Below, piece after piece: positions 13,818-61,021 of a DNA stretch of 64,000 nt. The stretch spans positions 247,182-311,181 of the forward strand of contig CAZNUP010000002.1 of NCBI GenBank assembly GCA_964576435.1. Direction: 5' to 3'. The notes beneath the pieces were generated by a model, which had not been told where the DNA came from, searched no databases, and worked only from the letters and a program-made list of their open reading frames with translations. Numbering within the stretch: the stretch's first letter is position 1; every line of letters starts with the position of its first letter. Both the position numbers and the translations under genes were made by a program. This stretch comes from an uncultured Gammaproteobacteria bacterium. GTDB lineage: Bacteria > Patescibacteriota > Microgenomatia > JAMCZE01.

Positions 13818-13855
13818 TAATTGATAAATTTTTCTAATGTTGTTAGGCTAAAACT

Positions 13856-14695: not shown

Positions 14696-14710
14696 TTTTT
14701 TAAACTGCCC

Positions 14711-16290: not shown

Positions 16291-16996
16291 AATTGATAAG
16301 CAAAGTTTTGATTGGTCAAAATATCTCTTATCTGGCATTGCTGTGCTAATTGTTTTTGCCAGTAGTATTGTTTTGTATTCCTTTATTCCTTCAACTTGGG
16401 CAGAAATTAGTCAGAATTCCACTTTAATTCAAGAGGAGACAACTAAGGTATCAAACATGGAAAAGGCTGTAGCAGTTCTTAATAATGTTAATAGTTCGCA
16501 GATTGGCCAGAATTTGATCCAAGCACAACTTGCACTGCCAGATGAAAAAAGAGTTACGGGATTAGTTTCAGCGTTAACTACTTTAGCATCCTCATCGGGG
16601 GCGACAGTTTCACAAATTGACATCTCATTTGGAAAGGTGTCTACCTCATCGGGTAAGACAAAACCTGTTACAGCTACTAATTCTTTTAGCCAATTTGAAG
16701 ATACCAAACTTCCAAACGATGTGGTTGGTGTGCCAATTATTTTGGAAGTTACTGGGACATCTGACCAGGTTCTTGCGCTTATTGGAAAGGTTCAAGAGGC
16801 ATTGCCACTTCTTGATATAAGAGACATGGAATATATAGTTAGTGACGACAAGCAAAGTAGTAAACTGTCAGTTCTTGTTTATGCTCAACCTGGGGAAGTG
16901 TTTAATTTATCAAAAGTAGATAAGATTTCGCCTATTACGTATTCGGAGCAGAATTACTTGAACATCTTAAACACTAAGACTGATATTCTTCAGTGA
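16256..16996 (+). CDS. pilO: PilO-like pilus assembly protein
   Basis: N-terminal TM anchor followed by a coiled-coil region, positioned after pilM and pilN; the ORF track starts at GTG 16247, the ATG at 16256 is preferred. Confidence 0.5.
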   Translation: MENPKNPLSSIKIDKQSFDWSKYLLSGIAVLIVFASSIVLYSFIPSTWAEISQNSTLIQEETTKVSNMEKAVAVLNNVNSSQIGQNLIQAQLALPDEKRVTGLVSALTTLASSSGATVSQIDISFGKVSTSSGKTKPVTATNSFSQFEDTKLPNDVVGVPIILEVTGTSDQVLALIGKVQEALPLLDIRDMEYIVSDDKQSSKLSVLVYAQPGEVFNLSKVDKISPITYSEQNYLNILNTKTDILQ

Positions 16997-45805: not shown

Positions 45806-45888
45806 GCAGATGTGGCGGAATTGGTATACGCGCACGCCTTAGGAGCGTGTTCCCAAAAGGAATGGAGGTTCAAGTCCTCTCATCTGCA
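45806..45888 (+). tRNA. tRNA-Leu (anticodon TAG), class II with a long variable arm
   Basis: Hand-folded: acceptor GCAGATG/CATCTGC, anticodon stem CACGC/GCGTG with loop CTTAGGA, variable arm TTCC-CAAAA-GGAA, T-loop TTCAAGT; CCA is not encoded. Confidence 0.8.
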
Positions 45889-47411
45889 CTAGATAGGACA
45901 GCATTGTCCTTAAATGTACGAATAGATTGATATAACGGGCTAATCTTCTGGTTCAATGTGCCGTTATAGTTCCAAGCCACTCCGAGAGGGAAGATTGAAC
46001 CAAGGAGCACTTTAAGCTCAAATATATTAGACCTTTTGTAAGTTTCGCCTAAGTCAGCCAACAAGGTTTTCATAAAGGTAGTTACTGCATCAATATTGTA
46101 TTTATCAATAGTAGCATCGTCTTTGGCGATTTGGGCTTGAAGCATTTTGTCTTCGATGAACGTACTTTGCTCCTTGAACACGTCGTCTGAATAAACTCCA
46201 TTCAGATTTTTTTCTACCATTGTTCGGCGTAGCTCTTTGAGTCTGGCAATTTCATTGTCGGCTTCATTCTTCATTTTTTGTAATCTTGAAAGACGCTCGT
46301 GGTAAGTTTTATACAAAAAATTAATGAAAAGATTTAAGCATTCTGGTTTTGGAGTAATTTCTTTTAACAATTGGATAAGTGTATTTTCTAACTCCTCTAC
46401 CTTAATAGAAGTAGAAGTGCAGGGTTTTCCACATCTGTAATAGCCGTACTTAGCATATCTGCCCTTACTCCACCCGCCTGTCAGTCCCATGCCACATTTG
46501 GCACATTTAATGACTCTTCTTAAGGGGAAATCTGGATTAGTGCTATTTCTTTTGGCTAGAGCAATTTTATTGACGTTTCGCCCGTCGAGAATAGCTTGAA
46601 CTTTATAAAATTGTGGTTCGCCTATCATGGCTACATGCTGCCCTTTTACCTCTTCTTTATAGGTCGGTGACGCTAATACACCCATATAAAATTTGTTTCT
46701 GAATATTTCGTCAGTTCTCTGAGGTCTTAACGGCCTCTCTATTTTGCCATGCTTCTCTAGGAGTCCCCAATCATTCATTATTTTAGTCATTTCCCGAAGA
46801 CTTTTTGTCCCAGTAGTCATAAGATCCCAAGCTTTTTTAACTCTGTCCCAACTATTAGTATCCTTTACGGCAAAACCTGCCTCTACTTTATATCCTAATG
46901 GTGCTTGACCCGTTACTAACATCCCTGAAAGGTAACGAGCCTTTAATCCATTTCTAGATCTTTCGCTTCTAATGTCGTTATCTAGCTGAGCAAAGCCAGC
47001 TAATACTGTCTCTACTAACTTTTCTGTGGGACTATTCCCTGTTGGTTCAGTAGCGGAAACAATAGTGACACCATTTTCTGCCAGCTTTTTTCTAATTGCT
47101 AAATAATCAGCCGTTTGTCTGGAAACACGATCAAGCCTGTAAATGAACATCGCCTGAACCCGTCCCTTATTTTTTCGGCAATATTCAAGAAGATTAATAA
47201 GAACTGGTCTGCCTAAAATACTTTTTGCAGACCGGCCTTCTTCTCTAAAAACTTCAGTCACAATGTAACCTCTTTTTTCTGCCTCCTTGCGACAGATTTC
47301 TTCCTGAGTATCGAGTGAAAAGTTGTCTACTTGTTCTTCTGTAGAAACGCGCAGGTAAAGAATCGCCTTTTTGCCGGTATCATATATTACTTCCGATCCG
47401 AATGAGTTCAT
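45870..47411 (-). CDS. large serine recombinase (phage/ICE integrase type)
   Basis: N-terminal resolvase domain AILYLRVSTEEQVDNFSLDTQ...YRLDRVSRQ, recombinase domain and a zinc-ribbon region (CAKCGMGLTGG...C); the 3' end overlaps the tRNA-Leu 3' end by 19 nt. Confidence 0.85.
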   Translation of the reverse strand: MNSFGSEVIYDTGKKAILYLRVSTEEQVDNFSLDTQEEICRKEAEKRGYIVTEVFREEGRSAKSILGRPVLINLLEYCRKNKGRVQAMFIYRLDRVSRQTADYLAIRKKLAENGVTIVSATEPTGNSPTEKLVETVLAGFAQLDNDIRSERSRNGLKARYLSGMLVTGQAPLGYKVEAGFAVKDTNSWDRVKKAWDLMTTGTKSLREMTKIMNDWGLLEKHGKIERPLRPQRTDEIFRNKFYMGVLASPTYKEEVKGQHVAMIGEPQFYKVQAILDGRNVNKIALAKRNSTNPDFPLRRVIKCAKCGMGLTGGWSKGRYAKYGYYRCGKPCTSTSIKVEELENTLIQLLKEITPKPECLNLFINFLYKTYHERLSRLQKMKNEADNEIARLKELRRTMVEKNLNGVYSDDVFKEQSTFIEDKMLQAQIAKDDATIDKYNIDAVTTFMKTLLADLGETYKRSNIFELKVLLGSIFPLGVAWNYNGTLNQKISPLYQSIRTFKDNAVLSSADERT

Positions 47412-47723: not shown

Positions 47724-47816
47724 GTGCGTGATACTATCTATATAACGATAGTATATATCGATATAACGATAGTGTCAATAACGTCGTGTGTACTTTGAAT
47801 AATTGATGTCCTATAA
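47724..47816. promoter_or_regulatory. divergent control region with operator-like repeats and a candidate -10 box
   Basis: Direct repeats ataacgatagt at 47743-47753 and 47763-47773; inverted arms actatc/gatagt; TATAAT at 47811-47816. Confidence 0.4.
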
Positions 47817-47897: not shown

Positions 47898-50522
47898 ATG
47901 GATATTATCAGTCAGTCAATAAGCTTTTTATTATTCCATTATTGGTTTATTGCTCTCACAGTTGTTTTTGTAGGCCTTTTGTCTGGTTTGCGGTGGCTTC
48001 TTGAAATAAGGAGATCATTAACTGATAAATCAGTCCTGCTTGAATTGACACCACCAGCCTTTAGTCAAAAAACTGCCTATACCACCGCTCAGCTTTTTAC
48101 GGTGGTGCATACACTCGGCAGCAAAAGGAAATTTATAGATAGAGTTTTAGGAAGGAAGATTATATTTTCCTTTGAGATCGTGTCTACAGTTGATCAAGGG
48201 ATAAGATTTCTAATAAGAACATCTCCTAGGGAGGTAAATAATGTCAAAAGAAATTTGTTTTCCTACGTTCCACAAGCAAATGTAAGAGAAGCTGAAGAGT
48301 ACTTACCTAAAATTTCAGACCTTTCTCACACGAAAGTGACTGAATATAAGTTAAGTAAACATTTTGCCTTTCCACTCCAAAAACAAAATGTCTTAGATGA
48401 ACACGATCCAGTGGCTTATATCACTGGCATGATGACGAAATTGGCACCTAGTGAACTTATTGCTTTCCAATTGGTGCTAACTCCTACAAAAGTTGATGAG
48501 GTGAATAAATTATCAGCAATGATTCTCCATAACGAGGACGTTTTGGCCTATTTAAACAAGTTTCAGTTCCCTGTTTGGCCCAAACCAGTGACTTTCACTT
48601 TAGATCTTCTGTTTAAAGGAATTGGTTCACTGGGAAGAGAAACCCAATGGATAGCTACAGAGTTGGTTCACTCGCCAAGTTCTTCTCCTGCCTATACTTA
48701 CCAAATGCAACCTCAACAACAAATGCAGCAGGCACATGTTAAACCGGCAAGAGTTTTAAGCAGTTTTGAGCAGCAGACAGTTGAGACGATTCAAGAAAAG
48801 ATTAAACAATCACTTTTTGAAAGTTCGATTCGTGTTCTGACGATTATGAAAGATAAAACTGCCAGTCAGGAAAGAAGTGACGGTTTTACCTCCTCTTTGG
48901 CAGTTTTTGGAGTGCCACAATATCAAACAATTCAGGCAAAGAATAGTTTTCCGAGAATTTTAACTGACAAATTGAGACTATTGGCTTTTGAAAAACGACT
49001 ATTGTCACCCGTCTTAAACACAAGTAATTCTCTTTTATCTGTCTCAGAGGCGGCTGACTTATTCCACTTCCCATTTGCCAAAGTTACTCAAACTGAAAAC
49101 ATAGTTAAGGTCATGTCAAAAGAGTTGCCAGCACCGCTCACTTTGAAACAAGGAAAAGAGTTAAGTGTTGTGTTTGGAAAGAACACTTATGCGGGAACAG
49201 AAACACCGATAGGACTAACGGCTGATGAACGAAAAACCCACATGTACATTATTGGACGAACTGGCAGTGGCAAGACAACTTTGATGTTTAGCATGGCCAA
49301 GCATGATATTGAAGCTGGCGAAGGCATGGCGTTTGTTGATCCTCATGGTGATGTGTCCGAAGACCTGCTCGCTTCAGTTCTAGAAGAGAGAAAAGACGAC
49401 CTTATATATTTCAACCCAGTTGACCTTAAATACCCGATAGGAATTAATTTACTTGAGCTAACTCCTGGTTTAGACGAAGACGAAGCTGAACTTGAAAAAG
49501 AATTGGTAGCTGAAGGAGTAATATCGCTCTTTAGAAAAGTCTTCTCTAAAGAAGAAAATGCCAACGCACATCGGATTGAATATATTTTGAGAAATACCAT
49601 TCATACCGCATTTACCACAGAAGAACCAACAATATTTACTGTTTATGACCTTTTAAATAACCCGCCATTCCAGCAAAAAGTGGTAGCCAAGCTTCAAGAT
49701 GAAAATCTAAAGAACTTTTGGAAATTTGAATTTGGCCGAGCTGGTGACTATCAAGTGGTTAAGATGACAAGTGGAGTCACAGCAAAGATCGGTCGGTTTC
49801 TTTTCTCCCCAACTGCTAAAAGAATACTTGAGCAAAAGAAATCCACCATTAATTTCGATGATGTGCTGGATGGAAAAATATTGATTTGTAATCTTCCACA
49901 AGGAAAATTAGGTGAGGATACCGCGAAACTTCTAGGAACAACTATCTTAACTAAACTGCAGCAAGCGGCACTAAAACGAGCCGATCGGCCACAAAGTGAA
50001 AGGAAACAGTTTCACCTCTACGTTGATGAATTTCAGAACTTTGCCACATTATCTTTCTCAAAGATGTTGTCCGAAGGTCGTAAATATGGCCTAGAGGTTT
50101 GTATTGCGGAACAGTCAACTTCCCAACAACAAGATAGAAGCATTGTTAATGTAATTTTGTCTAACGTAACTACGGTGATTTGCTTCAAGTCTGGGAATCC
50201 AATTGATGAACAGCTGATGCTTTCTCAATTTGCGCCTTATGTGGAAGAGGGCGAAATCCAGAATCTGTCCCGTTACCATTTCTATATAAAGATATCAGCA
50301 ATTGAGTCCGAAGCTCCTTTCTCCGGTGAAACTCTTTTTATTCCAGTCATTAAAGACAAAGAAAAGATGGAAGCACTAATTGAAGCGTCTAGAAAAAATT
50401 GGGCAATTAAATACGAGCATAAATTGAAAGTAGCGAGCAAAGAGAAGATTTCAAGAGGCCCAGAAACGAGTCCTAAAAAAGCTAAAAATACTGCATTACC
50501 CGAAGATGATAATGATGAATAA
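47898..50522 (+). CDS. type IV secretion coupling protein (VirD4/TraG/TraD family) with a long N-terminal membrane-anchored extension
   Basis: N-terminal TM helices; Walker A IIGRTGSGKTT followed by FVDPHGD; Walker B HLYVDEFQNF; RKYGLEVCIAEQSTSQQQD. Confidence 0.75.
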   Translation: MDIISQSISFLLFHYWFIALTVVFVGLLSGLRWLLEIRRSLTDKSVLLELTPPAFSQKTAYTTAQLFTVVHTLGSKRKFIDRVLGRKIIFSFEIVSTVDQGIRFLIRTSPREVNNVKRNLFSYVPQANVREAEEYLPKISDLSHTKVTEYKLSKHFAFPLQKQNVLDEHDPVAYITGMMTKLAPSELIAFQLVLTPTKVDEVNKLSAMILHNEDVLAYLNKFQFPVWPKPVTFTLDLLFKGIGSLGRETQWIATELVHSPSSSPAYTYQMQPQQQMQQAHVKPARVLSSFEQQTVETIQEKIKQSLFESSIRVLTIMKDKTASQERSDGFTSSLAVFGVPQYQTIQAKNSFPRILTDKLRLLAFEKRLLSPVLNTSNSLLSVSEAADLFHFPFAKVTQTENIVKVMSKELPAPLTLKQGKELSVVFGKNTYAGTETPIGLTADERKTHMYIIGRTGSGKTTLMFSMAKHDIEAGEGMAFVDPHGDVSEDLLASVLEERKDDLIYFNPVDLKYPIGINLLELTPGLDEDEAELEKELVAEGVISLFRKVFSKEENANAHRIEYILRNTIHTAFTTEEPTIFTVYDLLNNPPFQQKVVAKLQDENLKNFWKFEFGRAGDYQVVKMTSGVTAKIGRFLFSPTAKRILEQKKSTINFDDVLDGKILICNLPQGKLGEDTAKLLGTTILTKLQQAALKRADRPQSERKQFHLYVDEFQNFATLSFSKMLSEGRKYGLEVCIAEQSTSQQQDRSIVNVILSNVTTVICFKSGNPIDEQLMLSQFAPYVEEGEIQNLSRYHFYIKISAIESEAPFSGETLFIPVIKDKEKMEALIEASRKNWAIKYEHKLKVASKEKISRGPETSPKKAKNTALPEDDNDE

Positions 50523-50552
50523 ACTGTGTTAGCGCGTTAACACAGTTTTTGA
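50522..50552 (+). terminator. 10-bp perfect stem hairpin (aactgtgtta-gcgcgt-taacacagtt) followed by T-rich sequence; terminator and/or oriT-like inverted repeat
   Basis: Read directly from the sequence; lies between the coupling-protein gene and the putative relaxase gene. Confidence 0.45.
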
Positions 50553-50647
50553 GTAATTTTGAACCTAATTTGTTTTTGTTTACATCTTTTTTATATCTTA
50601 TATAAATATAAGAGGCTTTATTTATAACCATAAAAGTTGACCTATCC

Positions 50648-51412
50648 ATGACTACTCCATCTATAACTAAAGGCCAAATAAAAATAATACATTCACTATA
50701 TAAATTCCGCTTCCTAACTATTAACCATCTTCAAAAACTACTCAACCACAAAGCTCAATATCGAATTAATACCTGGCTACAAGATTTGCAAGACAAAAAA
50801 TATATTTCCGTAATTAAAGACAAAGATCGAACACAACCATTTATATATTGTTTAGACACTAAGTCCGGTCACGTTCTCAAAGACAATGAAAAGTTTGAAA
50901 AAACTTTTCTAAGTAGGTTGTATAAAGAAAAGAGTAAAGAAAGGCCGTTTATTAATCACCACCTTTTTATTGCAACTGTTTATCTCTTTTTCCTGTCAAA
51001 GAAGGAAAAACAATCGGTGCTTAAATTTTTTACTAAACAGAACTTGAAGGGTTATCAATATTTCCCTGATCCTCTTCCCGATGCATATATTTCAGTCAAA
51101 AACGAAAAACAAACCAAGAGATATTTTTTAGATTTGTTTGATCCCAATATTCCACCTTTTGTTCTGAGAAATAGAATCAAATATTATTTGAAGTATTTCC
51201 AAGACGGTCAGTGGCAAGAAAACACGGAAAACAGCCCGTTTCCGTTAATTCTGTTTGTTTGTCCCAATGACCGATTAAAAAAACACATTTTCATGTATAG
51301 CAAATCGTTGCTTCAAAAGTCATTTAATAATGAAGTCAAACTTTTTCTCACCACAAAAGAAATTTTGGAAGCAAATAATCCGGATCTAACGGTTTGGGAG
51401 CAAGCAAAGTAG
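50648..51412 (+). CDS. replication-relaxation (Replic_Relax) family protein, putative relaxase
   Basis: N-terminal wHTH-like ITKGQIKIIHSLYKFRFLTINHLQKLL and an INHHLFIATVYLF His motif; sits beside the coupling protein. Confidence 0.5.
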   Translation: MTTPSITKGQIKIIHSLYKFRFLTINHLQKLLNHKAQYRINTWLQDLQDKKYISVIKDKDRTQPFIYCLDTKSGHVLKDNEKFEKTFLSRLYKEKSKERPFINHHLFIATVYLFFLSKKEKQSVLKFFTKQNLKGYQYFPDPLPDAYISVKNEKQTKRYFLDLFDPNIPPFVLRNRIKYYLKYFQDGQWQENTENSPFPLILFVCPNDRLKKHIFMYSKSLLQKSFNNEVKLFLTTKEILEANNPDLTVWEQAK

Positions 51413-51448: not shown

Positions 51449-51748
51449 TCACTCGTGCAATTTCTTCACTTGTGATAGCGGTTTTGGTTCAAAAGAGGAA
51501 TCGCGCTCAACTCCTAATCCTAATGGCCCTTTGGCGCTACTAAGTTCTGAAAGCGAGAAATATCCAAACTCGCGCTCATGTCCCACTACAAAGCCGTAAA
51601 ACATATCTTTCCCATCAAATTCAATTGCATACCAAGTCCACCTTGAGGTAGGCGTAAAGAATTTGCACACTACTTGTGGATCTTCTATCCATTCGGTTGA
51701 TCCTATGGGAGGCAAGTTATCAGCCACAAATTTTGGTAATAGATTCAT
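51449..51748 (-). CDS. DUF2958 family protein (common on conjugative elements)
   Basis: KFFTPTSRWTWYAIEFDGKDMFYGFVVGHEREFGYFSLSELSSAKGPLGLGVERDSSFEPKPL matches my recollection of the DUF2958 consensus; the ATG after SD GGGGGTG is preferred over the track's GTG at 51757. Confidence 0.55.
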   Translation of the reverse strand: MNLLPKFVADNLPPIGSTEWIEDPQVVCKFFTPTSRWTWYAIEFDGKDMFYGFVVGHEREFGYFSLSELSSAKGPLGLGVERDSSFEPKPLSQVKKLHE

Positions 51749-51781
51749 TAAGTTCACCCCCTTTCTGTAAAAAATTGAATT

Positions 51782-51805
51782 TCGAAAGCATGCGCATGCT
51801 TTCGA
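51782..51805. promoter_or_regulatory. 24-bp perfect palindrome tcgaaagcatgcgcatgctttcga in a divergent intergenic region
   Basis: Read directly; flanked by direct repeats cccttgtc(a/t)(a/g)aaga at 51884 and 51904 and a TATAAT at 51958. Confidence 0.5.
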
Positions 51806-51937: not shown

Positions 51938-54409
51938 TTGAAACCTAAATCCCAGAGTATAATGCCAATTATGAGGTACGAGCAGCTAATCACCCTGGAG
52001 GAAAAAAATAAATGGCTCGAGCTTGAAGTGACGCTTGGGACTAATGACGCGCTTATTGGTAAGGATTTATCGAGATTGCGTAATTTCCTAAAAACCTTTA
52101 ATGACTTAGAAAAACGAAATTTGGAAGCGACCACTACTTTGAGTTTTAATCTAGAATCTCCTTTGTCATTGGAAGACAATCCAAAATTACTGAAATTATT
52201 GTTAATAAAAAAATTTATTGAACAGCACGGCCTCTCTGTTATTAGGGAAGCAAAATCAAACCAAGGCCTATCTGAAAAAACTGTTTTCTTGGAAGTTTCT
52301 GATGGACTATTTAATCGGAACGAGTATCCAGAGAAAATATATGTCTATGCAGCATATAGGCAGCGAGGAAGCCCTAATACATGGCTAAAGGTGATTAGTA
52401 ATTTGACGGCAGATGAAGTTGAACAGAAGTTGGAAAGTAAAACACGGGCTCTACAATCATATATTAATCATCATCTTCGGATTTCGAGAAAATTCAGATT
52501 TAAGGAAACTATTGGTAGTCTAGCCATTTTCGTTTTTTCTAAAGCTATTCCAGCGAAAGTTATGAAAGGAGAGACAAAAAACCTAGAAGTACAGAGAGCT
52601 ACATATACCATGGTTGTTTTTGACAAATCAGAAAATAAGTTAGGTGTTGTTACTGGTAGCAGGAAAGAAGTTCAGCTAATTCAAAGGTATATTCGTTATA
52701 GGCTTCTCCCCGACTCTATTGGCACCCCACGCTCTGAATTAGAAAAAGACCGCAAGGACATTCTTAAAAAGATTTTGGCTTCGAATGGAGATAGGTTCAT
52801 TTCCTTAAACAGCGTTTCATTCAAAACAACATTATTGCCGGGGCACCCTTCTGTTCGGTTAAAGGTCAACGGTAGTTCCTCAGTCGATGACGCCTTAAAT
52901 GCGCTACCTGATATGTGGAACAATCTTGGAATTGAGGCGCTGAGGAACGTAGATTACCAATTTCAAGGGAAAATTGTAAATGTTTATATATATGGAGATG
53001 AATGGAAAAGAATTTTCATCAATACTACAGCCAAAAGGAACTCACGTGAACTAGAAAATTATATCCTGGATGACCTCAACCAACGTCTTGGTACAAACGT
53101 AAAAGAGACAAGTTTTATTGTAGAACCTTTAACAGATGAGTACATTCTAGAAAAAATATTCATTGTTAAACGGGTTGCATCATTTCCACCAGTGCCGAAA
53201 CAAGTAGAGGGAATGATTATCAGACTTATTGGTCAAAAAATAATTAAAGAACCTACTAAAATTTCTAGAAGAAGATGTTCCATTTGTTATGGATTTTCTT
53301 GGAACGATTGGAATTGCCCCAATTGTGATAGAGAATCGATGATTGTCGTTGGCGAGGCTATAAATATTGAGTTAGTCGAGACAGTAGTCATTCGTAAACT
53401 TGCCAAATTACTTCCAAATGACTTGCCAAACTTTCAAGTTAAATTGATTCCTTATAAGCAAAGAAGAAATTATAAAAAAACAGTAATAAAAATTTATAAT
53501 CCAACCAAGAATTTATCCGTTTTTATCTTGTTAATTTCTGATAAGAAAGACTTGCCTTTCGTTGAAGATTTATTGCATGAAGGATTTGGTGTAATAGGGA
53601 TAATAGATCCAGAATTAGGGCAGAAGGCAGATTATTTGGAACGAAGTGGCTGCAATTTAGTTCCATTGCATTTAGTAGTAAATAGACTTGTCAATGGTTC
53701 TGATAGACCGACATTCTTAACACATGTCGAGGATCAAGAGCGAAAAGTTCTAGAAAGAATTTTTGCAAACTTGAGAATGTCCCTGAATAAACTCAACAAT
53801 AAACCGAACAATTATGATGAAGATATGTTTGAAATTGACATTACTAATTTGTTTCAAGCTATTGTTCCTGATGTCATTAGATTAGGTACCGAGCATAAAG
53901 GAAGATCAGTTCCGGATGGTTATTGTTGCTATGGCTATAAAGAATTAGCCCGAAAGAAACGGCTATTTGGGTGGGATGCAAAATACAGCATTCATTCAAA
54001 TTATAGATTGGGTTCTACTGACCTAGTTAAACAAAAAAGGTACCTGGCATGGTTGAGTGCAAAAAATAGTGAGCCGGCCAAGATTGGCAGCTTGGGGATA
54101 TATGCTTTTATTTCTAATTTTGATTCCGCCACGGGTTTTAATACCACCCTTACAAATTTAACAAAATGGGATAAATTTCCGAGACAGTGTCGATTGATTC
54201 TTGTGCAGGACAAATTACTTGTCGAAATTTGTGAATGGATATTAGCACATTGGCAACAAGTGATAGATAACAACTCATTGATTTCTGAGGTAACCTTTAA
54301 GTGGTTTAGAAGAAATACTGCTAAATCTTTTAATACATTGCACGTCAATGATTGGCACAAACTAGAAAAAAAGTTAAATCAAATTCCTCTTTTAGCCCGT
54401 CATAATTGA
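51938..54409 (+). CDS. large uncharacterised protein (823 aa) with a central zinc ribbon and a C-terminal PD-(D/E)xK-like nuclease motif
   Basis: CSICYGFSWNDWNCPNCD (CxxC-N10-CxxC); C-terminal ...RSVPDGYCCYGYKELARKKRLFGWDAKYS (PD ... DxK spacing, Mrr-like); no Walker A seen; the track starts at TTG 51938, an ATG lies at 51962. Confidence 0.5.
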   Translation: MKPKSQSIMPIMRYEQLITLEEKNKWLELEVTLGTNDALIGKDLSRLRNFLKTFNDLEKRNLEATTTLSFNLESPLSLEDNPKLLKLLLIKKFIEQHGLSVIREAKSNQGLSEKTVFLEVSDGLFNRNEYPEKIYVYAAYRQRGSPNTWLKVISNLTADEVEQKLESKTRALQSYINHHLRISRKFRFKETIGSLAIFVFSKAIPAKVMKGETKNLEVQRATYTMVVFDKSENKLGVVTGSRKEVQLIQRYIRYRLLPDSIGTPRSELEKDRKDILKKILASNGDRFISLNSVSFKTTLLPGHPSVRLKVNGSSSVDDALNALPDMWNNLGIEALRNVDYQFQGKIVNVYIYGDEWKRIFINTTAKRNSRELENYILDDLNQRLGTNVKETSFIVEPLTDEYILEKIFIVKRVASFPPVPKQVEGMIIRLIGQKIIKEPTKISRRRCSICYGFSWNDWNCPNCDRESMIVVGEAINIELVETVVIRKLAKLLPNDLPNFQVKLIPYKQRRNYKKTVIKIYNPTKNLSVFILLISDKKDLPFVEDLLHEGFGVIGIIDPELGQKADYLERSGCNLVPLHLVVNRLVNGSDRPTFLTHVEDQERKVLERIFANLRMSLNKLNNKPNNYDEDMFEIDITNLFQAIVPDVIRLGTEHKGRSVPDGYCCYGYKELARKKRLFGWDAKYSIHSNYRLGSTDLVKQKRYLAWLSAKNSEPAKIGSLGIYAFISNFDSATGFNTTLTNLTKWDKFPRQCRLILVQDKLLVEICEWILAHWQQVIDNNSLISEVTFKWFRRNTAKSFNTLHVNDWHKLEKKLNQIPLLARHN

Positions 54410-54509
54410 CTTTACTCCACCCACTGATATAATCTGATATAGATTTTAATAGTAAGTTTCTTTTTCTTCTGCCCTTCAGAAAAGAACTTCCAAGGAAGGG
54501 GGTGGAAGT

Positions 54510-54848
54510 ATGAAGAAATTAATTTTTCTACAATCGCTTGTTTTAACTGCACTCGTAGTTGCCTCTCCTGCATTTGCTGCCTCCGCTGATGTTTCCAAAA
54601 TCCAAACATTTATCCAAAGTATTATCCAAGTCTTGGTAACGATTGCCGCTCTTGTGGCGTCTGGATTTTTTGTTTTGGGAGGATTTGGCTATATCACAAG
54701 TTCCGGTAATCCTGAGTCACTGGATAAATCCAAGAAAACTATTCTCTACTCAGCAATCGGGTTAGTAGTAGTACTCGGGGCATTTGTGCTATCCAATATG
54801 GTTACTCAACTAGCTACTGGCGCCTTTGGAGCTGCAGCTGGCAATTAA
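54510..54848 (+). CDS. VirB2/TrbC-like conjugative pilin
   Basis: Signal peptide MKKLIFLQSLVLTALVVASPAFAAS followed by two hydrophobic helices; 112 aa; strong SD AAGGAAGGGGGTGGA. Confidence 0.6.
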   Translation: MKKLIFLQSLVLTALVVASPAFAASADVSKIQTFIQSIIQVLVTIAALVASGFFVLGGFGYITSSGNPESLDKSKKTILYSAIGLVVVLGAFVLSNMVTQLATGAFGAAAGN

Positions 54849-54849
54849 C

Positions 54850-56151
54850 ATGCCTATGAAAAGAGTATTAACCATTTTAGGATTAGTCCTAGGGTTCTTC
54901 GTATTTCCCATGCCTGCCTTTGCTGCAGGATCAGATTTGGCAAGTTATACCACTGACACTTTAAACATCATTACCATTATCGCCAGCGCCGCAGCAACAC
55001 TATTTCTCATCAAAGGTGGTTATCTCTACTTCACCTCCGCTGGTCAACCCCAAGCACTCGAAGAAGCAAAGAAAACAATCAGAAACAGCTTGATGGGACT
55101 GGTAGTAGTTCTTGCCGCAGGATTAATTGTCTCCGTCTTTAAAGGTGCTCTTCCTGCTTCCACAGGAGACACGAGCACTGCAGCCGTAGCAATTGCACCC
55201 ATTACTACAATTAAACCAACCGATGGTCTGTCCCAGGTTCTTATCGATGCAGTCTCAGCCTTCATTCAAAATATTGTTGAAAGCTCAACCAAACCAATCG
55301 TAGACGGGATTATTGGCTTTTTGACTACAACACCGAACTTATTGGGAAATTCTGTCATCACAAAGTTTTGGCTTGTCAGCTTGGGAATTGTGGACACACT
55401 TTTTGTTTTGGTGGTGGCACTTCTTGGACTGCATTTCATGAGCGCTAGTGCACTTGGCTTTGAAGAAGTAGAACTAAAACAACTCCTTCCAAGGATTGGC
55501 ACCGCTTTTCTGGGGGCCAATATTTCTTTGTTCCTGGCTGATTATGTAATCACTACTTGTAACGTGTTGGTGAAAACAATCTTAGATTCCACTGGAGGAC
55601 TAACTCACGCTTGGATTATGGATGCCATTAATCCAGTAACTTTTGCTACGGGTGGTACACCTCTAATTACTCTCATCTTTCTAGTTTTGTTCTTAATTCT
55701 CTCTGTTGTCCTGTTGCTTATGTACATTGCTAGATTAATTACCCTTTCTTTAGGAGCAGTGTTGTCACCCTTCATTTTTCTTCTCTGGACCCTGCCGAAG
55801 TTTTCTGACTTTGCTGAAATTGCCATTAAGTCATATGTTGTAACTGTATTTATGGTTTTTGTGCACGTAGTCATTATTCAACTAGCAGCAGCATTCTTAA
55901 CAATTCCTGGAAATTCAAATAATTCCCTTTTGGCAATTGCTATTGCCATTGGACTTTTTCTCACACTTTTGAAAGTTCCCGGGACCATGATGCAAATGGT
56001 CTTCTATACCTCACGAAATGGCACATTTAAAAAGATGGGTAGTCAAATTGTTAATGTGATGACCAGCGACAAATCTGGTGCAGCCAGTTCGGCTAGTTCT
56101 GCAGCCAGAGAAGCTGTTGTCAAACTGCCCAGAAAGGCGGTAGCGATATGA
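54850..56151 (+). CDS. VirB6/TrbL-like T4SS polytopic membrane protein with an N-terminal pilin-like domain paralogous to the upstream VirB2-like gene
   Basis: N-terminal ~105 aa (PAFAAGS...IKGGYLYFTSAGQPQALEEAKKTI...GLVVVLAAGLIVS) parallels PAFAASA...LGGFGYITSSGNPESLDKSKKTI...GLVVVLGAFVLS of the preceding ORF; at least 6 TM helices follow. Confidence 0.6.
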   Translation: MPMKRVLTILGLVLGFFVFPMPAFAAGSDLASYTTDTLNIITIIASAAATLFLIKGGYLYFTSAGQPQALEEAKKTIRNSLMGLVVVLAAGLIVSVFKGALPASTGDTSTAAVAIAPITTIKPTDGLSQVLIDAVSAFIQNIVESSTKPIVDGIIGFLTTTPNLLGNSVITKFWLVSLGIVDTLFVLVVALLGLHFMSASALGFEEVELKQLLPRIGTAFLGANISLFLADYVITTCNVLVKTILDSTGGLTHAWIMDAINPVTFATGGTPLITLIFLVLFLILSVVLLLMYIARLITLSLGAVLSPFIFLLWTLPKFSDFAEIAIKSYVVTVFMVFVHVVIIQLAAAFLTIPGNSNNSLLAIAIAIGLFLTLLKVPGTMMQMVFYTSRNGTFKKMGSQIVNVMTSDKSGAASSASSAAREAVVKLPRKAVAI

Positions 56152-56654
56152 GAAGCACAGTCATTCCAGCACAAATTACCACTGTTGAAGATAAAATCGC
56201 AGGCAATTTAAACTTGACCCAAATTGTGCTCTTTCTAGGTGCAATATTTGCAACTACATTTCTCTACGTTATCTTACCGCCAACCCACCACTTAACCCCT
56301 CTAAAGACCATCGTAGGGCTCATAACCATCACCGGATTTATGGCCCTGGCAGTTCGAATCAAAGGAAAGATCGTTCTTGACTGGCTACTTGTTCTTTCTA
56401 GGTACAACTTGCGACCAAAATATTACGTGTTTAATAAAAACGACGCCTATTTACGAACCCTATATTTACCAGAGCTACCCGCCAAAGCAAAGCTGTTTGC
56501 TAAAAAGGTGAGCCCACAAAAAGCTACGCAACCTGAGACAACCAATATCGTCATTAAGGACCTAGTAAAGTTGGATGCTTTAGTACAAGACAAAAACCTG
56601 AGTTTTAGTTTTAAAACTAACAGAAAAGGAGGACTCGATGTGGCTTTTGAATAA
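56148..56654 (+). CDS. PrgI/VirB3-like small T4SS membrane protein
   Basis: 168 aa with two TM helices, directly upstream of the VirB4 genes; 4-nt overlap with the upstream gene. Confidence 0.4.
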   Translation: MRSTVIPAQITTVEDKIAGNLNLTQIVLFLGAIFATTFLYVILPPTHHLTPLKTIVGLITITGFMALAVRIKGKIVLDWLLVLSRYNLRPKYYVFNKNDAYLRTLYLPELPAKAKLFAKKVSPQKATQPETTNIVIKDLVKLDALVQDKNLSFSFKTNRKGGLDVAFE

Positions 56655-57240
56655 ATCAAATCAAAAAATGAGTTCCAGAAAACAAATCAACATTAAAGAA
56701 GTGAAAGACGGAATGTTAATTTTGCCTAACAACCAATACCGAGTGGCAATTGAAACTTCCTCAATTAACTTTGAGCTTAAAAGCGAACAGGAGCAGGACG
56801 TTTTGATTGATAGTTTTCAAAATTTCCTCAACTCCCTTCCATGTCAGCTGCAAATCCTTATTCGCGTGAGAGAAATTGACATCGATTCTTACTTGGAGGA
56901 AATATCAAAAGGAAAACAGCTGCAAGAAGAGCTGCGTAACTATTGCGATTTCATTAAAACTGTTGTCTCGGGAAACAAAATCCTTTCCAGACGTTTTTAT
57001 GTCATTATTCCCTATCACAGCGCAAGTGGGAGTAAGGATTTTGAATTTATCAAAGAACAGATTCGTTTAAATTGTGACCTGGTCACTAAAGGCTTGGAAA
57101 AATTGGGAATGAAAGCAAAACAGTTGGACAGTCTTGAAATTCTCGATCTGTTCTACAGTTTCTATAATCCAGGCCAGACTAAGACGCAAGAACTTAAAGG
57201 GCAAACAATTCAGACACTTTTACAAAATAACTATGCCTAA
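56638..57240 (+). CDS. VirB4 N-terminal-domain-like protein (separate 200-aa ORF)
   Basis: Length and position equivalent to the N-domain of ~800-aa VirB4 proteins; the stop overlaps the next start (ATGCCTAA). Confidence 0.4.
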   Translation: MWLLNKSNQKMSSRKQINIKEVKDGMLILPNNQYRVAIETSSINFELKSEQEQDVLIDSFQNFLNSLPCQLQILIRVREIDIDSYLEEISKGKQLQEELRNYCDFIKTVVSGNKILSRRFYVIIPYHSASGSKDFEFIKEQIRLNCDLVTKGLEKLGMKAKQLDSLEILDLFYSFYNPGQTKTQELKGQTIQTLLQNNYA

Positions 57241-59047
57241 CTTAAATCTAAATTTAATCAATCGACTAAAGCAATTTGAGTCCAAGTCGCTAGGGCTTAA
57301 AGGCAAGAACAGCCAAAAAGAGGCAACGAAGAAAGCCATGAGCTTTAATTTTGGTGAACAAGACCAAGTAGATCTTCTATCCTACTCGGGTCTGATGGAA
57401 GAAGCCTCGTATCTTCAAGTGGGTGACAAATTTGTACGCACATTATTTATTTCCGGCTACCCCTATGTTGCTTCCACTGGTTGGCTCAACATGCTCATCA
57501 ATTTTAATCACAACGTGGATATTTCATATCACATTGAACAAGTTGACCCTCAACTTGCCTTGCCAAAATTAAACAGAAAAATAACTGAGCTCGAGTCCAC
57601 AAAGAGATCAATGCTTAAGGACGGAAAAGTAATAGGCTCGGAGATTACAGATCCCTTAGACTCAGCTATTGAACTTAAAAACAAAATTCAACGCGGTCAA
57701 GAGAAGTTGTTTCAAGTCTCGATATATATAAACATTAGTGCTGATAATCTCAGTGATTTAAATAAACTCACCACAACTTTGGAAACAGTAATGTCGACTA
57801 GGTTGTTTTATATTAAAACTGCCCAATTCCAACAATTGGAAGGGCTGCAATCGACTCTTCCCAGAGGAGAGAACCTTCTTAATCAAAGACGAAATTTAGA
57901 CAGTTCCTCGGCCGCATTAACATTTCCTTTCGTGTCTTCTGAACTAGTTCAAGAGTCAGGTATCTTGTATGGGATAAACAAATCAAACAATTCGCTCGTT
58001 ATCATCGACAGATTCAGTTTAAACAATGCCAACAGTATAATTTTCGCTCAGTCTGGATCCGGAAAAAGCTACACAGCAAAGGTTGAAATACTCCGGCAAC
58101 TTATGCAGGGAACTAGAGTCATTGTGATTGATCCAGAGAGGGAATATCAACAGTTGGCTAAATCAGTCAACGGTAGTTACATCCAACTGTCTGCCAATTC
58201 AAAAGAAAAAATTAATCCCTTCGACTTTTCACTTACAAACTACCATCGGGAAAATATCCTGGCAGAAAATATCCAAAACCTAACTGAAATAATTTCTCTT
58301 ATGGTTGGTTCCCTTTCCGATGAAGAACGAGCAATAGTAGATAAAGCCTTAATTCAAACATACAAAAAGTTTGGTTTTTCAATCAACAGTAAAAGCACCG
58401 AGCTTAAAGGAAGAAAGTTCCCACTCCTCAAAGATTTCTATAAAGAATTGAAAAACCTACACCAAACTGATTTATGTAATCGGCTAGATAAATTCGTCAA
58501 CGGCTCCCTTGCGTCAGTATTCGATTCAGAAACAAATATTCAGCTTGATAACCGCTTAGTAGTTTTTGACATCAAGGACCTTGGAGAATCACTGAGACAA
58601 ATAATGATGCTTGTTGTAGCTAACTTTGTGAATTCCGAAGTTAAATCGAATCCACAAAAGAGAATTTTGGTGATTGATGAGGGTTGGCTACTTCTGCAAT
58701 ACGAGGAAAGTGCCAGATTCATTTCTGGACTAGTCAGGCGAGCCAGAAAATATTACTTGGGAGTAACAATCATCTCTCAGCAAGCTAATGACTTCTTAAA
58801 TCAAGAATATGGTCGCGCCATTGCTTCGCAAAGCTCACTTAGAATTTTAATGAAACAAGACACCACAACAATTCAAAAGGTAGCTCAAGAATTTCATCTG
58901 AGTGAATACGAACAACATTTTCTGTTAACTTGTGACCGAGGCGAAGCACTGATTATTGCTGACCAAAATCATGTTGCTCTCAAAGTTGTCGCCTCAGAAA
59001 AAGAGCACCCGCTTCTGACAACCGATCCTAAGGAGATATATCTCTAA
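57233..59047 (+). CDS. VirB4/TrbE-family T4SS ATPase (C-terminal ATPase part)
   Basis: Walker A AQSGSGKSYTAK; Walker B RILVIDEGWLLL; the track starts at 57134, but the ATG at 57233 (MPNLNL) right after the upstream stop is preferred. Confidence 0.75.
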   Translation: MPNLNLNLINRLKQFESKSLGLKGKNSQKEATKKAMSFNFGEQDQVDLLSYSGLMEEASYLQVGDKFVRTLFISGYPYVASTGWLNMLINFNHNVDISYHIEQVDPQLALPKLNRKITELESTKRSMLKDGKVIGSEITDPLDSAIELKNKIQRGQEKLFQVSIYINISADNLSDLNKLTTTLETVMSTRLFYIKTAQFQQLEGLQSTLPRGENLLNQRRNLDSSSAALTFPFVSSELVQESGILYGINKSNNSLVIIDRFSLNNANSIIFAQSGSGKSYTAKVEILRQLMQGTRVIVIDPEREYQQLAKSVNGSYIQLSANSKEKINPFDFSLTNYHRENILAENIQNLTEIISLMVGSLSDEERAIVDKALIQTYKKFGFSINSKSTELKGRKFPLLKDFYKELKNLHQTDLCNRLDKFVNGSLASVFDSETNIQLDNRLVVFDIKDLGESLRQIMMLVVANFVNSEVKSNPQKRILVIDEGWLLLQYEESARFISGLVRRARKYYLGVTIISQQANDFLNQEYGRAIASQSSLRILMKQDTTTIQKVAQEFHLSEYEQHFLLTCDRGEALIIADQNHVALKVVASEKEHPLLTTDPKEIYL

Positions 59048-59668
59048 ATGAGTCTCATAACTCCAAGTACAATTCTCACCGTCTGGTCATTTAGAAAAGA
59101 ATTAATCTACGTAGCCATAGCATTTCTAATTGTTCTCTCACTCCCAATTGTGGCCGTTATTATTCTCACAAATACCGGATTAAATATTGTCTCCGACAAA
59201 TTAGCCACTGTTAATGTCCAAACTCAGGCTATTCAAATTAGAAACCCAGCGGATGGAGAAATAATCAAAGAAATTCATGCCCAAATTGTCTGGCCAGTCA
59301 AAGGAGTGATTACCCTAAACTTTGGCGAACCTGATTTGCCGTTTCAACCCCTCCATACAGGAATTGATATTGCGAACCCTGAAGGGAAAATTGGTGATCC
59401 AATAACTCCTTTTATGAATGGAAAGGTCATCTACGCTGGGGAAACTGCTATTGGCTATGGCAAACACATCATTATTGATCACGGAGATAACATCAGCTCA
59501 GTTTATGGACACTTAGATAAGGTTAATGTGTTTACAAGTCAACAGGTAACCACCAATGATGTAATTGGTCTAGAAGGACAAACAGGTTGGGCTACAGGAC
59601 CACATTTACATTTTGAAATAAGAGTTTTTGGAATCCCGGTGAATCCGAGAACATTTTTATTTAATTAA
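59048..59668 (+). CDS. M23 family peptidoglycan endopeptidase (conjugation-associated cell-wall hydrolase)
   Basis: HTGIDIA...GYGKHIIIDHGDNISSVYGHL...GPHLHFE (the HxxxD and HxH zinc ligands of M23) plus an N-terminal TM anchor. Confidence 0.85.
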   Translation: MSLITPSTILTVWSFRKELIYVAIAFLIVLSLPIVAVIILTNTGLNIVSDKLATVNVQTQAIQIRNPADGEIIKEIHAQIVWPVKGVITLNFGEPDLPFQPLHTGIDIANPEGKIGDPITPFMNGKVIYAGETAIGYGKHIIIDHGDNISSVYGHLDKVNVFTSQQVTTNDVIGLEGQTGWATGPHLHFEIRVFGIPVNPRTFLFN

Positions 59669-59670: not shown

Positions 59671-60081
59671 TTGCAATTCCTATTAGGCTTTTCTACAATC
59701 TGTAGTATGGAAACTAAGCAACTGAGTGAACTTGAGCAGGAAGTGATGAACATCGTTTGGGAACTGAAAAACTGTTCGGTACGAGATGTGCTTGAAGAAT
59801 TAACTAAGTCTAAAAAACTAGCATATACCACCGTAGCAACCATCCTTCAGAGACTTAATGATAAAGGAGTCGTCGTTCGTAAAGGATCTGGGCAAACTTT
59901 TTCCTACTCTCCTAAAATTTCTAGAGAGGTTTACAGCAAAAATGTGGCGCAAACTTTTATCCAGAAGTTTTTCAGGTCCTTTGGTGACACAGCTGTAGCA
60001 TCATTCGCAGAAACCCTAGATAAACTCCCTACGGAGAAAAAGAAACATTTATTAAAATTATTATCTGATCATGGCAATTAA
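59671..60081 (+). CDS. BlaI/MecI/CopY family transcriptional repressor
   Basis: LSELEQEVMNIVWELKNCSVRDVLEEL...YTTVATILQRLNDKGVVVRK winged-helix signature; no C-terminal Cys cluster. Confidence 0.8.
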   Translation: MQFLLGFSTICSMETKQLSELEQEVMNIVWELKNCSVRDVLEELTKSKKLAYTTVATILQRLNDKGVVVRKGSGQTFSYSPKISREVYSKNVAQTFIQKFFRSFGDTAVASFAETLDKLPTEKKKHLLKLLSDHGN

Positions 60082-61021
60082 AAATTTACTTTTTCCTTTC
60101 AGTTTGATTGGTGCTTTCGGTTTGACTACGCTTTTAATTTTTCAGAAATTTCTCCAGCTTTCCATTGGACATACCGTCTATTATTGCCAAAATGTAATTA
60201 AATCCTTATCGCTTCAGTTTCCCCAACCTCTCGGTATTGTTCTTATTTCACTTCTTTTATTAACGATTGTTTTTCCATTACTTAAGTTTTTGTTTAATCT
60301 TCACAAACTTTCCCGACTTAAAAATAATCTAACTCCTAGCCTGGAAATGAGCAAAAAATTATTTCGCCTTGTGACAGCTCTAGATTTACAAGGAAAAGTA
60401 ATTCAGGTTAAAAGTAGAAAGTTGTTTGCCTATTGTGTGGGGATGAAAAGTCCAAAAATATATGTTTCGTCAGCGCTTATATCATCAGTAGACTCTAGGG
60501 AATTAGAAGCAATATTACTTCACGAGAAAAGTCATTTAGATAATCATGACCCATTTGTTTTAGTATTGATGTCCATTGTCCACTCTTTATTTCCCTATTT
60601 GCCAATACTCAGTGATTTTGTTCGAAACTTTCGTATCGAAAGAGAAATTCAGGCCGATCAAGCAGCCGTTTATCAGCAAGGTGAGATGAAACCACTTCTT
60701 TCAGCAATGAGGAAACTTCTTTTAATTGAAGACTCTGACAGGTTTGCATTTTCCTTAGGAATGGGAGAGCTGGACACTCTTGAAGTTCGAATTAATATGC
60801 TACTTAACAAAAAATTGATCCACAAGAAGTTCCATGCTCTGAATATTATTGCAACTACTGTAACGATTCTGGTTGTTGGGTTTATGGCAATTGCTCCTGT
60901 TCATGCAATAGAAAATCATGAGAACGGAAAAGATGTTATGACAGTCTGGTGTGACGGAAATCAAACCATTAATTCAAGTCAGCCATCAGAAAATTCCTCC
61001 CATCCATATAGCACTAAATAA
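60071..61021 (+). CDS. M56 (BlaR1-like) membrane metalloprotease/signal transducer without a penicillin-binding sensor domain
   Basis: HEKSHLDNHD (HExxH) in a polytopic membrane protein; overlaps the BlaI-family gene by 11 nt. Confidence 0.75.
   Translation: MAIKNLLFPFSLIGAFGLTTLLIFQKFLQLSIGHTVYYCQNVIKSLSLQFPQPLGIVLISLLLLTIVFPLLKFLFNLHKLSRLKNNLTPSLEMSKKLFRLVTALDLQGKVIQVKSRKLFAYCVGMKSPKIYVSSALISSVDSRELEAILLHEKSHLDNHDPFVLVLMSIVHSLFPYLPILSDFVRNFRIEREIQADQAAVYQQGEMKPLLSAMRKLLLIEDSDRFAFSLGMGELDTLEVRINMLLNKKLIHKKFHALNIIATTVTILVVGFMAIAPVHAIENHENGKDVMTVWCDGNQTINSSQPSENSSHPYSTK

Follow-up and report, generated by a model that had tools for sequence, protein, structure and literature searches.

A putative FokI-type PD-(D/E)xK nuclease carried by a Patescibacterial conjugative element, with a probable role in defence

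The genomes of CPR bacteria (Patescibacteria) are tiny, and few of their defences have been characterised. The window analysed here (the whole stretch of DNA, 64,000 nucleotides in length) contains an ICE with a large gene that bears no family annotation, and the question raised by this locus is what the encoded protein does for the element that carries it. In our preferred reading, to which we assign a probability of roughly 0.55, it is a stand-alone restriction-like nuclease that is carried as ICE cargo and acts, independently of a methyltransferase, against incoming foreign DNA such as that of phages and rival mobile elements. The occurrence of this 2.4-kb gene across CPR conjugative elements and phage-like and restriction-modification (R-M) islands, and of full-length relatives on haloarchaeal plasmids, points to unexplored restriction-like immunity.

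The gene and its host element

An earlier note on this DNA had called an ORF of 823 codons on the plus strand (51938..54409), and this ORF was found as described, with a TTG start and a TGA stop. The protein is nevertheless more likely to be 812 aa than 823 aa long: the close homologues (n = 15) comprise 807-816 aa and all share the N-terminus MR[YH]E, from which the true start is probably the ATG given in Table 1. The existence of full-length homologues with 50-71% identity (mean column identity 71%) indicates that the ORF is not a chance ORF. The long ORFs of the window end with TAA (22), TAG (10), or TGA (7) and are free of in-frame breaks; since TGA thus serves as a stop, alternative genetic code 25 was ruled out. 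A perfect -10 hexamer lies just upstream of the ATG, but was omitted by the promoter scan because there is no acceptable -35 element. No Shine-Dalgarno sequence precedes the ATG, and together with the position of the hexamer this suggests that the transcript may be leaderless.

Table 1. Positions in the window of the nuclease gene, its encoded domains and candidate catalytic residues (812-aa numbering), and nearby sequence elements.
Feature	Position	Strand	Remarks
24-bp perfect palindrome TCGAAAGCATGCGCATGCTTTCGA	51782-51805	no strand	divergent DUF2958/nuclease intergenic region
-10 hexamer TATAAT	51958..51963	+	perfect; ends 7 nt 5' of ATG 51971
Nuclease gene	51971..54409	+	likely start ATG 51971; stop TGA 54407-54409; 812 aa
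N-terminal helical bundle, residues 1-132	51971..52366	+	AF2 models, pLDDT mostly 77-95
Alpha+beta modules, residues 133-420	52367..53230	+	generic TBP-like/KA1/helix-grip type
Zinc ribbon, C436-x2-C439-x9-C449-x2-C452	53276..53326	+	Cys cluster
Alpha/beta linker domain, residues 471-580	53381..53710	+	beta-beta-beta-alpha-beta-alpha-beta-alpha
Cleavage domain, residues 581-812	53711..54406	+	FokI/BspD6I-like PD-(D/E)xK
Candidate catalytic E621	53831-53833	+	conserved motif
Candidate catalytic D649	53915-53917	+	conserved motif
Candidate catalytic D669	53975-53977	+	conserved motif
Candidate catalytic K671	53981-53983	+	conserved motif

The ICE is integrated at tRNA-Leu and encodes a serine integrase, a VirD4 coupling protein, a Replic_Relax relaxase, a pilin, VirB6, VirB3, VirB4, and an M23 hydrolase. 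The relaxase is the 254-aa product of the gene at 50648-51412, which lies beside the coupling protein gene and matches PF13814 (Replic_Relax; E-value 7e-9), the Pfam family of the MobC/MOBC relaxases (PMC5357655). The nuclease ORF itself was considered as the ICE relaxase and ruled out on account of this neighbour. The ICE is complete without the nuclease gene, which in our reading is accessory cargo; the GC content of the gene is 35.8% vs. 38.2% for the ICE. No methyltransferase was found in the ICE or elsewhere in the 64-kb window, and the window ORFs of at least 100 aa contain no N6/N4 methyltransferase motif other than a chance NPPF in the T4CP gene. A search for att direct repeats marking the right end of the ICE gave none that was convincing.

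The nuclease gene is flanked, as the earlier note had it, by the genes for a DUF2958 protein (51449-51757, minus strand) and the T4SS pilin (54510-54848, plus strand), and the promoter scan assigned the pilin operon a strong promoter of its own (54406-54433), in line with cargo status of the nuclease gene. The 24-bp palindrome that had previously been linked to the nuclease gene is present as a single copy in the window, with no match in any of 100 shuffles, but it is missing from all 21 related loci. It was therefore rejected as a regulatory site conserved along with the nuclease gene, and since it is not kept upstream of the homologues the palindrome is to be regarded as part of the ICE backbone, where it probably represents an operator or an oriT-type element.

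Domain architecture and candidate active site

Structure models were built from only 15-17 sequences and reached pLDDT values of 75 and 81. The N-terminal helical bundle gave no specific fold match. The first of the alpha+beta modules that follow is basic (net charge of +10 for residues 133-248), and the modules together (residues 133-420) are proposed to be the target-recognition or sensor region. None of the recognised modification-reader folds (SRA, EVE, YTH, winged helix) was detected in the N-terminal half, a point against our preferred reading, and as modelled the N-terminal 475 aa appear unlike any recognised recognition domain. Comparison of protein segments with each other by hhalign gave nothing that would indicate a second nuclease-domain copy or internal repeats.

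The zinc ribbon had been noted before as CxxC-N10-CxxC; the motif holds, with a spacer of nine residues instead of ten. The four cysteines are kept in 65-68 of the 68 distant homologues covering this region. The PDB profile search yielded weak zinc-ribbon likenesses only, among them one to the L37ae/eL43 zinc ribbon (E-value 0.4). A Walker A motif is absent from the protein, in agreement with the previous observation that no P-loop is visible.

The modelled C-terminal domain has a restriction-endonuclease fold with an alpha-beta-beta-beta-alpha-beta core and matches the cleavage domain of FokI/BspD6I better than other restriction-endonuclease folds. It contains a PD...DAK motif (P648-D649 and D669-A670-K671) with E621 upstream. 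These catalytic positions (E621, P648-D649, D669-A-K671) are invariant in 15/15 close homologues, and in the distant relatives (n = 78; 12-21% identity) D669 and K671 are always present, position 649 is always D or E, and E621 is kept in all but one (77/78). The catalytic block is the best-conserved segment of the family, and nothing apart from the zinc ribbon and the PD-(D/E)xK core is kept superfamily-wide. The modelled fold and the conserved motif thus strongly support the identification of the protein as a putative PD-(D/E)xK nuclease.

Structure prediction of the C-terminal region, which the earlier note had suggested as a check, therefore returned a nuclease fold with conserved candidate residues and not the non-nuclease match that it had named as contrary evidence. 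Of its description of this region as Mrr-like, the PD...(D/E)xK motif and the fold stand; the affiliation with Mrr does not, as there was no match to Mrr_cat at an E-value of up to 1, and likewise none to PF13814 or to Endonuc-FokI_C. Against the FokI cleavage domain, hhalign gave a probability of only 64% (E-value 6.5e-5) and placed E621/D649/D669/K671 in register with FokI D450/D467/K469. The residues of the FokI dimer interface are not kept, and the position of FokI R487 is occupied by R, K, or G, which is another point against our preferred reading.

The leading regions of mobile elements harbour anti-defence genes, which would fit an anti-defence factor, as also considered in the earlier note, or an inert DNA-binding protein (a decoy or regulator) in place of an active nuclease. 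We regard this as very improbable: the (near-)invariance of the catalytic tetrad at 12-21% identity argues for retained catalysis, and the protein resembles no known anti-restriction protein.

Distribution and genomic context of the relatives

No model in Pfam, NCBIfam, PADLOC, or PHROGs covers any part of the family, as judged from the window protein and 61 distant relatives, and a sequence search of the PDB gave no match for the window protein, so that the label "uncharacterised" given to it before still applies to this annotation gap. In PADLOC-DB v2.0.0, which includes the nuclease variants of Lamassu LmuA, the window protein matched 0 families, and 62 superfamily members produced three isolated weak matches only. 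This lack of a match among the PADLOC defence models is a counterpoint to the defence reading. Nothing was obtained from plasmids (tblastn with the window protein), from IMG/VR viral contigs (scan with the close-family alignment), or from viral structures (Foldseek, E-value of up to 0.001). A homologue search seeded by the alignment of the distant homologues retrieved the close family only, and genome and metagenome scans added just three further loci. Clustering at 50% identity divides the superfamily, which is common to CPR bacteria and haloarchaea, into about 115 clusters. The close family is rare and is mostly found in small phage-like elements as their largest gene, which makes a role in the life cycle of these elements possible.

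All homologue loci examined represent mobile or defence contexts; the exclusively core contexts that had been named beforehand as speaking against a mobile defence factor were not encountered. In three haloarchaeal plasmids the relative, whose match to the family is full-length (hhalign probability 99.9), directly follows McrB/McrC and lies beside DUF262, HNH, and DUF1156/DUF499 genes. At locus L016 it is located directly 3' of a Bil operon, and locus L001 combines a tyrosine integrase with HindVP and HaeII R-M systems, Vsr, and a KAP NTPase. The T4SS element at L012 is related to the window ICE (VirB4 69% identical), with the nuclease gene at another site and in the other orientation, as expected of cargo. 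Other relatives reside in phage-like islands with a serine recombinase. From these mobile-element and defence-island settings a defence role is predicted as probable, with the protein probably being a stand-alone weapon against foreign DNA. A conserved partner gene was sought and rejected: ORFs of 556 aa, ~104 aa, and 113-153 aa recur in some loci, but none of them occurs in the window, and the 556-aa protein has no PDB or PHROG assignment.

The same contexts bear on whether the protein could instead be the element's own nuclease, i.e., a site-specific nickase or endonuclease that initiates replication or processing of the element after its excision, an exclusion or addiction factor, or even a second, non-canonical relaxase-like nickase of Patescibacteria. 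In the window the gene has the DNA-processing module (T4CP, MOBC) on one side and the T4SS on the other, and in serine-recombinase islands of ~10 kb without a recognisable replication protein it is the largest gene. MOBC relaxases are reportedly related to restriction endonucleases, as described by Francia and colleagues in 2013. Furthermore, most T4SS clusters of Patescibacteria are without a known relaxase (PMC12102498). We nevertheless consider this explanation quite unlikely. The window ICE already has a relaxase of the MOBC type, encoded next to the coupling protein, the nuclease ORF lacks the corresponding Pfam match, and neither the palindrome beside the gene nor the position of the gene relative to the T4SS is conserved; moreover, relatives following McrBC, following the Bil operon, and in R-M islands occur without a replicon or transfer module.

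Non-conjugation functions have been proposed for Patescibacterial T4SSs (PMC12102498), and in two of ten close-family loci the gene is embedded in a T4SS cluster, as would be expected of a toxic nuclease effector that the T4SS delivers to the host bacterium or to competing cells. Against this, a T4SS is absent from the remaining 8/10 loci and from every distant locus examined, the window contains no adjacent immunity gene, the gap between the nuclease gene and the pilin gene is just 100 nt, and the protein showed none of the known T4SS translocation signals. We therefore give such an effector only a slim chance.

N6_N4 methyltransferases are encoded within ~5 kb in 6/10 close-family loci (ParB-methyltransferase fusions in five loci, an HTH-methyltransferase in one), and these could be cognate methylases, which is a further counterpoint to the defence reading as formulated here. 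The protein might accordingly belong, as the endonuclease, to a classical type IIS-like R-M system whose methyltransferase is unlinked and encoded elsewhere in the host genome or, in phage-like islands, as the ParB-N6_N4 protein(s). Its FokI/BspD6I-like cleavage domain fits this explanation, and so do the two adjacent methylases each at L003 and L007, as such pairs are needed for asymmetric type IIS sites. However, mobile elements typically have orphan methylases in the form of ParB-methyltransferase fusions encoded next to terminase genes, and at L001 every neighbouring methylase is already paired with its own endonuclease. Methyltransferases are missing not only from the ICE and the window but also from the vicinity of the gene at L006 and L012, and none is linked to it at L016 and L017. 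If the enzyme cut unmodified DNA, the gene would be lethal whenever it moved to another element and left its methylase behind. We consider a type IIS-like R-M origin unlikely.

Proposed mechanism and comparison with known nucleases

For a stand-alone defence nuclease we propose that the variable N-terminal part of 470 residues, with its helical bundle, TBP/KA1-like modules, and zinc ribbon, would recognise the target, which may be defined by its sequence, by a modification of the DNA, or by DNA structure, and that the C-terminal FokI-type domain with its single predicted active site (E621, D649, D669, K671) would cut the DNA. As in FokI and BspD6I, one such domain on its own would be limited to nicking, and two molecules would have to pair to break both strands. 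Since the element encodes no cognate methyltransferase, self-protection would probably be achieved either by the choice of modified or otherwise non-self DNA as the target, in the manner of type IV enzymes and END nucleases, or by autoinhibition. More tentatively, the family may represent a new superfamily of single-gene immune nucleases of CPR bacteria and haloarchaea, in which a new sensor array is combined with a FokI-type domain without a methyltransferase. If true, this would mean a new way of self/non-self discrimination, and engineering might gain a new modular nuclease scaffold. Genome editing with ZFN/TALEN-type tools relies heavily on FokI-type cleavage domains, and a natural family in which such a domain is combined with another recognition scaffold could bring a new principle of targeting to light.

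The likeness to FokI and to N.BspD6I/R.BspD6I (PDB 2fok, 2ewf, 2p14) concerns the modelled cleavage domain. In contrast to FokI, the window protein is not a member of Pfam FokI_C (the hhalign probability being only 64%), lacks the helix-turn-helix/winged-helix recognition domains D1-D3 in its N-terminal 475 aa, has a zinc ribbon and a further alpha/beta domain as insertions, is ~230 aa longer, and has no cognate methyltransferase. With the stand-alone, modification-dependent type IV/type IIM enzymes (END nucleases, MspJI-like enzymes, Mrr) it shares the single polypeptide with modular sensor and nuclease, the lack of a methyltransferase, and the location within mobile elements and defence islands; its putative sensor modules, however, are not of the iEndoIII, SRA, EVE, or winged-helix type. 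END nucleases are type IIS-like enzymes without a methyltransferase that provide modification-dependent defence against modified phage DNA (PMC12191111) and offer a precedent for the present reading, but their nuclease is a PLD and not a PD-(D/E)xK domain of the FokI type. Mrr differs by its Mrr_cat domain and its N-terminal winged-helix reader, neither of which was found here. The similarity to RnlA (RNase LS) is one of generic fold without a sequence relationship, and the RnlA effector is a HEPN RNase with an antitoxin partner. MOBC relaxases (PF13814) are likewise nucleases. Their genes adjoin VirD4 coupling protein genes on serine-integrase elements (PMC5357655), whereas relatives of the window protein, which is not a PF13814 member, are also found away from transfer genes.

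Gene model and FokI-type catalytic domain

The large ORF on the ICE described in the earlier note as a candidate nuclease (51938..54409, plus strand; 823 codons from a TTG start to a TGA stop) is a real gene with 15 full-length homologues of 807-816 aa (50-71% identity). Because all 15 open with MR[YH]E, the start is almost certainly ATG 51971, as judged from these N-termini, giving a product of 812 rather than 823 aa, which is identical to the database protein P0001. In the host genome TGA does act as a stop codon, the stop usage of long ORFs being TAA 22, TAG 10 and TGA 7, with no broken genes. A perfect TATAAT ends 7 nt before the ATG and neither a Shine-Dalgarno sequence nor an acceptable -35 is present upstream; from the TATAAT position and the missing Shine-Dalgarno sequence, the mRNA may be leaderless.

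The protein was rightly called uncharacterised, as no part of it matched Pfam, NCBIfam, PADLOC, PHROGs or the PDB sequence set, and the reported absence of a P-loop was borne out, no Walker A motif being found. A profile search against 1.84 billion cluster representatives recovered 115 relatives at E <= 1e-3, 23 of them below 1e-30. Many were 790-920 aa long and aligned across the whole length, others only over residues ~580-800, and no consistent Pfam, PADLOC or NCBIfam domain was found in 61 distant relatives.

Conservation was counted in an alignment of 78 relatives with 12-21% identity to the window protein. The C-terminal motif ...VPDGY...GWDAKYS..., with the glutamate of FEID upstream, lies in the best-conserved segment, the catalytic block (residues 613-720), whose mean identity was 70% among the close and 30% among the distant sequences, compared with 15-20% elsewhere in the latter. 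D669 and K671 were kept in all 78 relatives, position 649 (D649) was D or E in all 78, and E621 and Y691 were each kept in 77. As modelled, the domain was likened to N.BspD6I nickase (2ewf, score 12.4), FokI (2fok, 12.2), the R.BspD6I small subunit (2p14, 11.3; 154 residues at 3.3 A) and HindIII (3a4k, 9.0). The claim of a C-terminal PD-(D/E)xK domain thus held, although the domain is FokI-type and not Mrr-like, with its catalytic set intact and strongly conserved. The zinc ribbon was also present (C436-x2-C439-x9-C449-x2-C452), with a spacer of N9 instead of N10, and its four cysteines were kept in 65-68 of the 68 sequences spanning the region; it is conserved in the superfamily, and the N-terminal region is variable. 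The libraries searched contain no description of the superfamily or of the full architecture, the catalytic domain itself being of a kind already known.

Genomic context of the relatives and putative function

In both CPR bacteria and Halobacteria the nuclease gene occurs singly, on unrelated mobile elements and in defence islands. Two of the 10 distinct close-family loci examined (window included) are T4SS elements, namely the window and L012, whose VirB4 is 69% identical to that of the window and whose nuclease gene lies at the other cluster end in reverse orientation. Five are ~10-kb phage-like islands with a ParB-N6_N4 methyltransferase (L003, L004/L005, L007, L011, L021), most of which also bear a TerL/TerS-like pair and an S24 repressor; L010, with an HTH-N6_N4 methyltransferase and an S24 repressor, is the sixth methyltransferase locus of the ten. 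At L001, where an R-M island comprises HindVP, HaeII, Vsr, a KAP NTPase, HNH and Fic, the gene stands at the island's head beside a tyrosine integrase; L006 has no recognisable mobile or defence module. No neighbour is conserved at every related locus, and the recurrent small neighbours are all missing from the window. In five related loci a recurrent 556-aa protein, to which Pfam, PDB and PHROG give no assignment, is encoded beside or near the gene; the window lacks this protein, which may be an occasional partner or mere co-cargo.

The islands of the L004 and L011 type resemble CPR-bacterial phage satellites. They combine a serine recombinase (present in both), an OB-fold protein, an HTH protein, a TerL-like (weak Terminase_6C) and TerS-sized pair, the methyltransferase and the repressor, and they lack capsid genes. 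Upstream of the nuclease homologue in the L007 island, at a distance of a few genes, lies the gene for a 170-aa protein that has a PycTM (Pycsar effector transmembrane) domain.

Of the more distant superfamily members, that at L016 directly follows a Bil (BilB-like/BilD_N) operon, that at L013 shares its region with CARF/Csa3, HerA-NurA, SMC and a transposase, and that at L019 has an integrase as its neighbour. On three haloarchaeal plasmids (L017, L018 and L020; plasmids of Salinigranum, Haloglomus and Haloferax) a member is encoded directly 3' of McrB-like and McrC genes, with DUF262, HNH and DUF1156/DUF499 genes alongside. With hhalign, 662 columns of the family profile aligned to this 786-aa haloarchaeal protein (prob 99.9%, E 5e-34). 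The McrB-like AAA ATPase, McrC and this member form the same one-strand three-gene block with a 59-nt gap on all three plasmids, a possible mobile defence island or McrBC-linked variant.

We infer that the nuclease is an active DNA endonuclease for defence or mobile-element conflict. The gene context points to defence, and a stand-alone restriction-like defence nuclease is the favoured reading (probability roughly 0.55); an anti-defence or inert protein is very improbable. The N-terminal region would select the target and the C-terminal domain would cut it, one cleavage domain nicking and a double-strand break requiring the pairing of two molecules, as in FokI/BspD6I. No methyltransferase was found in the ICE or the rest of the window, and a classical type IIS endonuclease with an unlinked methylase is considered unlikely. 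Since its gene travels without a methyltransferase, the proposed stand-alone nuclease would probably discriminate self from non-self either through autoinhibition or through the kind of target that it attacks, namely modified or otherwise non-self DNA. A precedent for such a type IIS-like nuclease without a methylase is provided by the END nucleases, which are aimed at hypermodified phage DNA (PMC12191111). As a candidate for a new family of stand-alone restriction-like nucleases the protein is solid and testable, and its catalytic end would work by a conventional mechanism.

The carrying element and its sites

As first described, the gene lies between DUF2958 (upstream, opposite strand) and the T4SS pilin gene (downstream), in a compact ICE adjoining tRNA-Leu(tag). 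Because the 3' end of the serine-recombinase gene overlaps this tRNA, the ICE appears to be integrated at tRNA-Leu; no convincing att direct repeat for its right end was found in the window.

Coordinates of features in the window and at related loci
Feature	Location	Coordinates	Strand
Type IV pilus cluster	window	5889-16996	
tRNA-Leu(tag)	window	45806-45889	+
Serine recombinase	window	45870-47411	-
Tandem 18-nt units	window	47735-47773	
VirD4-type coupling protein	window	47898-50522	+
Replic_Relax protein, 254 aa (PF13814, MOBC)	window	50648-51412	+
DUF2958	window	51449-51757	-
24-bp palindrome	window	51782-51805	
TATAAT region	window	51958-51973	
Nuclease	window	51971-54409	+
Sigma-70 promoter	window	54406-54433	
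Pilin	window	54510-54848	+
VirB6-like	window	54826-56151	+
PrgI/VirB3	window	56148-56654	+
VirB4	window	57134-59047	+
M23 peptidase	window	59048-59668	+
BlaI/BlaR1-like genes	window	59671-61021	
Phage-like island	L004	2168-13332	
Phage-like island	L011	3624-13290	
PycTM protein	L007	8933-9445	
556-aa recurrent protein	L007	12426-14096	
556-aa recurrent protein	L010	13625-15295	
556-aa recurrent protein	L003	2757-3860	
556-aa recurrent protein	L021	~2990-3439	
556-aa recurrent protein	L006	195-497	
McrB-McrC-nuclease block	L017	3393-8801	
McrB-McrC-nuclease block	L018	3393-8801	
McrB-McrC-nuclease block	L020	3219-8630	

Replic_Relax belongs to the MOBC relaxase superfamily, and serine integrase, VirD4 and MobC constitute a described module (PMC5357655). 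The ICE therefore has its own relaxase and does not need the nuclease as one, which argues against an element-maintenance or processing nickase, a role regarded as quite unlikely. Most T4SS clusters of Patescibacteria are without a relaxase, MOBC being the commonest class where one occurs (PMC12102498). With a coupling-protein gene followed by the MOBC relaxase gene (47898-51412), the ICE is among the minority of such clusters with relaxase and integrase, and since it has both it is potentially conjugative. The T4SS operon is transcribed independently, as it has its own strong, near-consensus sigma-70 promoter (TTGACT-16-TATAAT, extended TG), which overlaps the nuclease stop codon 5' of the pilin gene, and a strong pilin Shine-Dalgarno sequence. 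That the nuclease is an effector delivered by the T4SS is highly improbable.

The 24-bp perfect palindrome reported earlier was found as a single copy in the window, 25 nt upstream of the DUF2958 start, and is terminator-like in score on the minus strand because a T-run follows it there. It was absent from all related loci and is thus not specific to the nuclease gene; possible roles are those of an operator or of an oriT-type inverted repeat serving the adjacent MOBC relaxase. With this correction and those to a FokI-like domain, 812 aa and an N9 spacer, the interpretation of the earlier note is supported.

Two tandem, near-identical 18-nt units (TATCTATATAACGATAGT / TATCGATATAACGATAGT), each partly palindromic, lie within the 487-nt gap 5' of the coupling-protein gene and are a candidate regulatory or oriT site. 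Directly after the M23 peptidase, a BlaI/Penicillinase_R repressor and a BlaR1-like M56 peptidase are encoded, followed by DsbA-like and cupredoxin genes; these genes may belong to the ICE. For the rest, the window has ordinary chromosomal genes (GyrB, H+-PPase, type IV pilus genes, RecG, aminoacyl-tRNA synthetases); its type IV pilus cluster encodes PilB-like and PilT-like ATPases, PilC, PilM and others, and such a cluster alongside GyrB, H+-PPase and RecG is typical of Patescibacteria.
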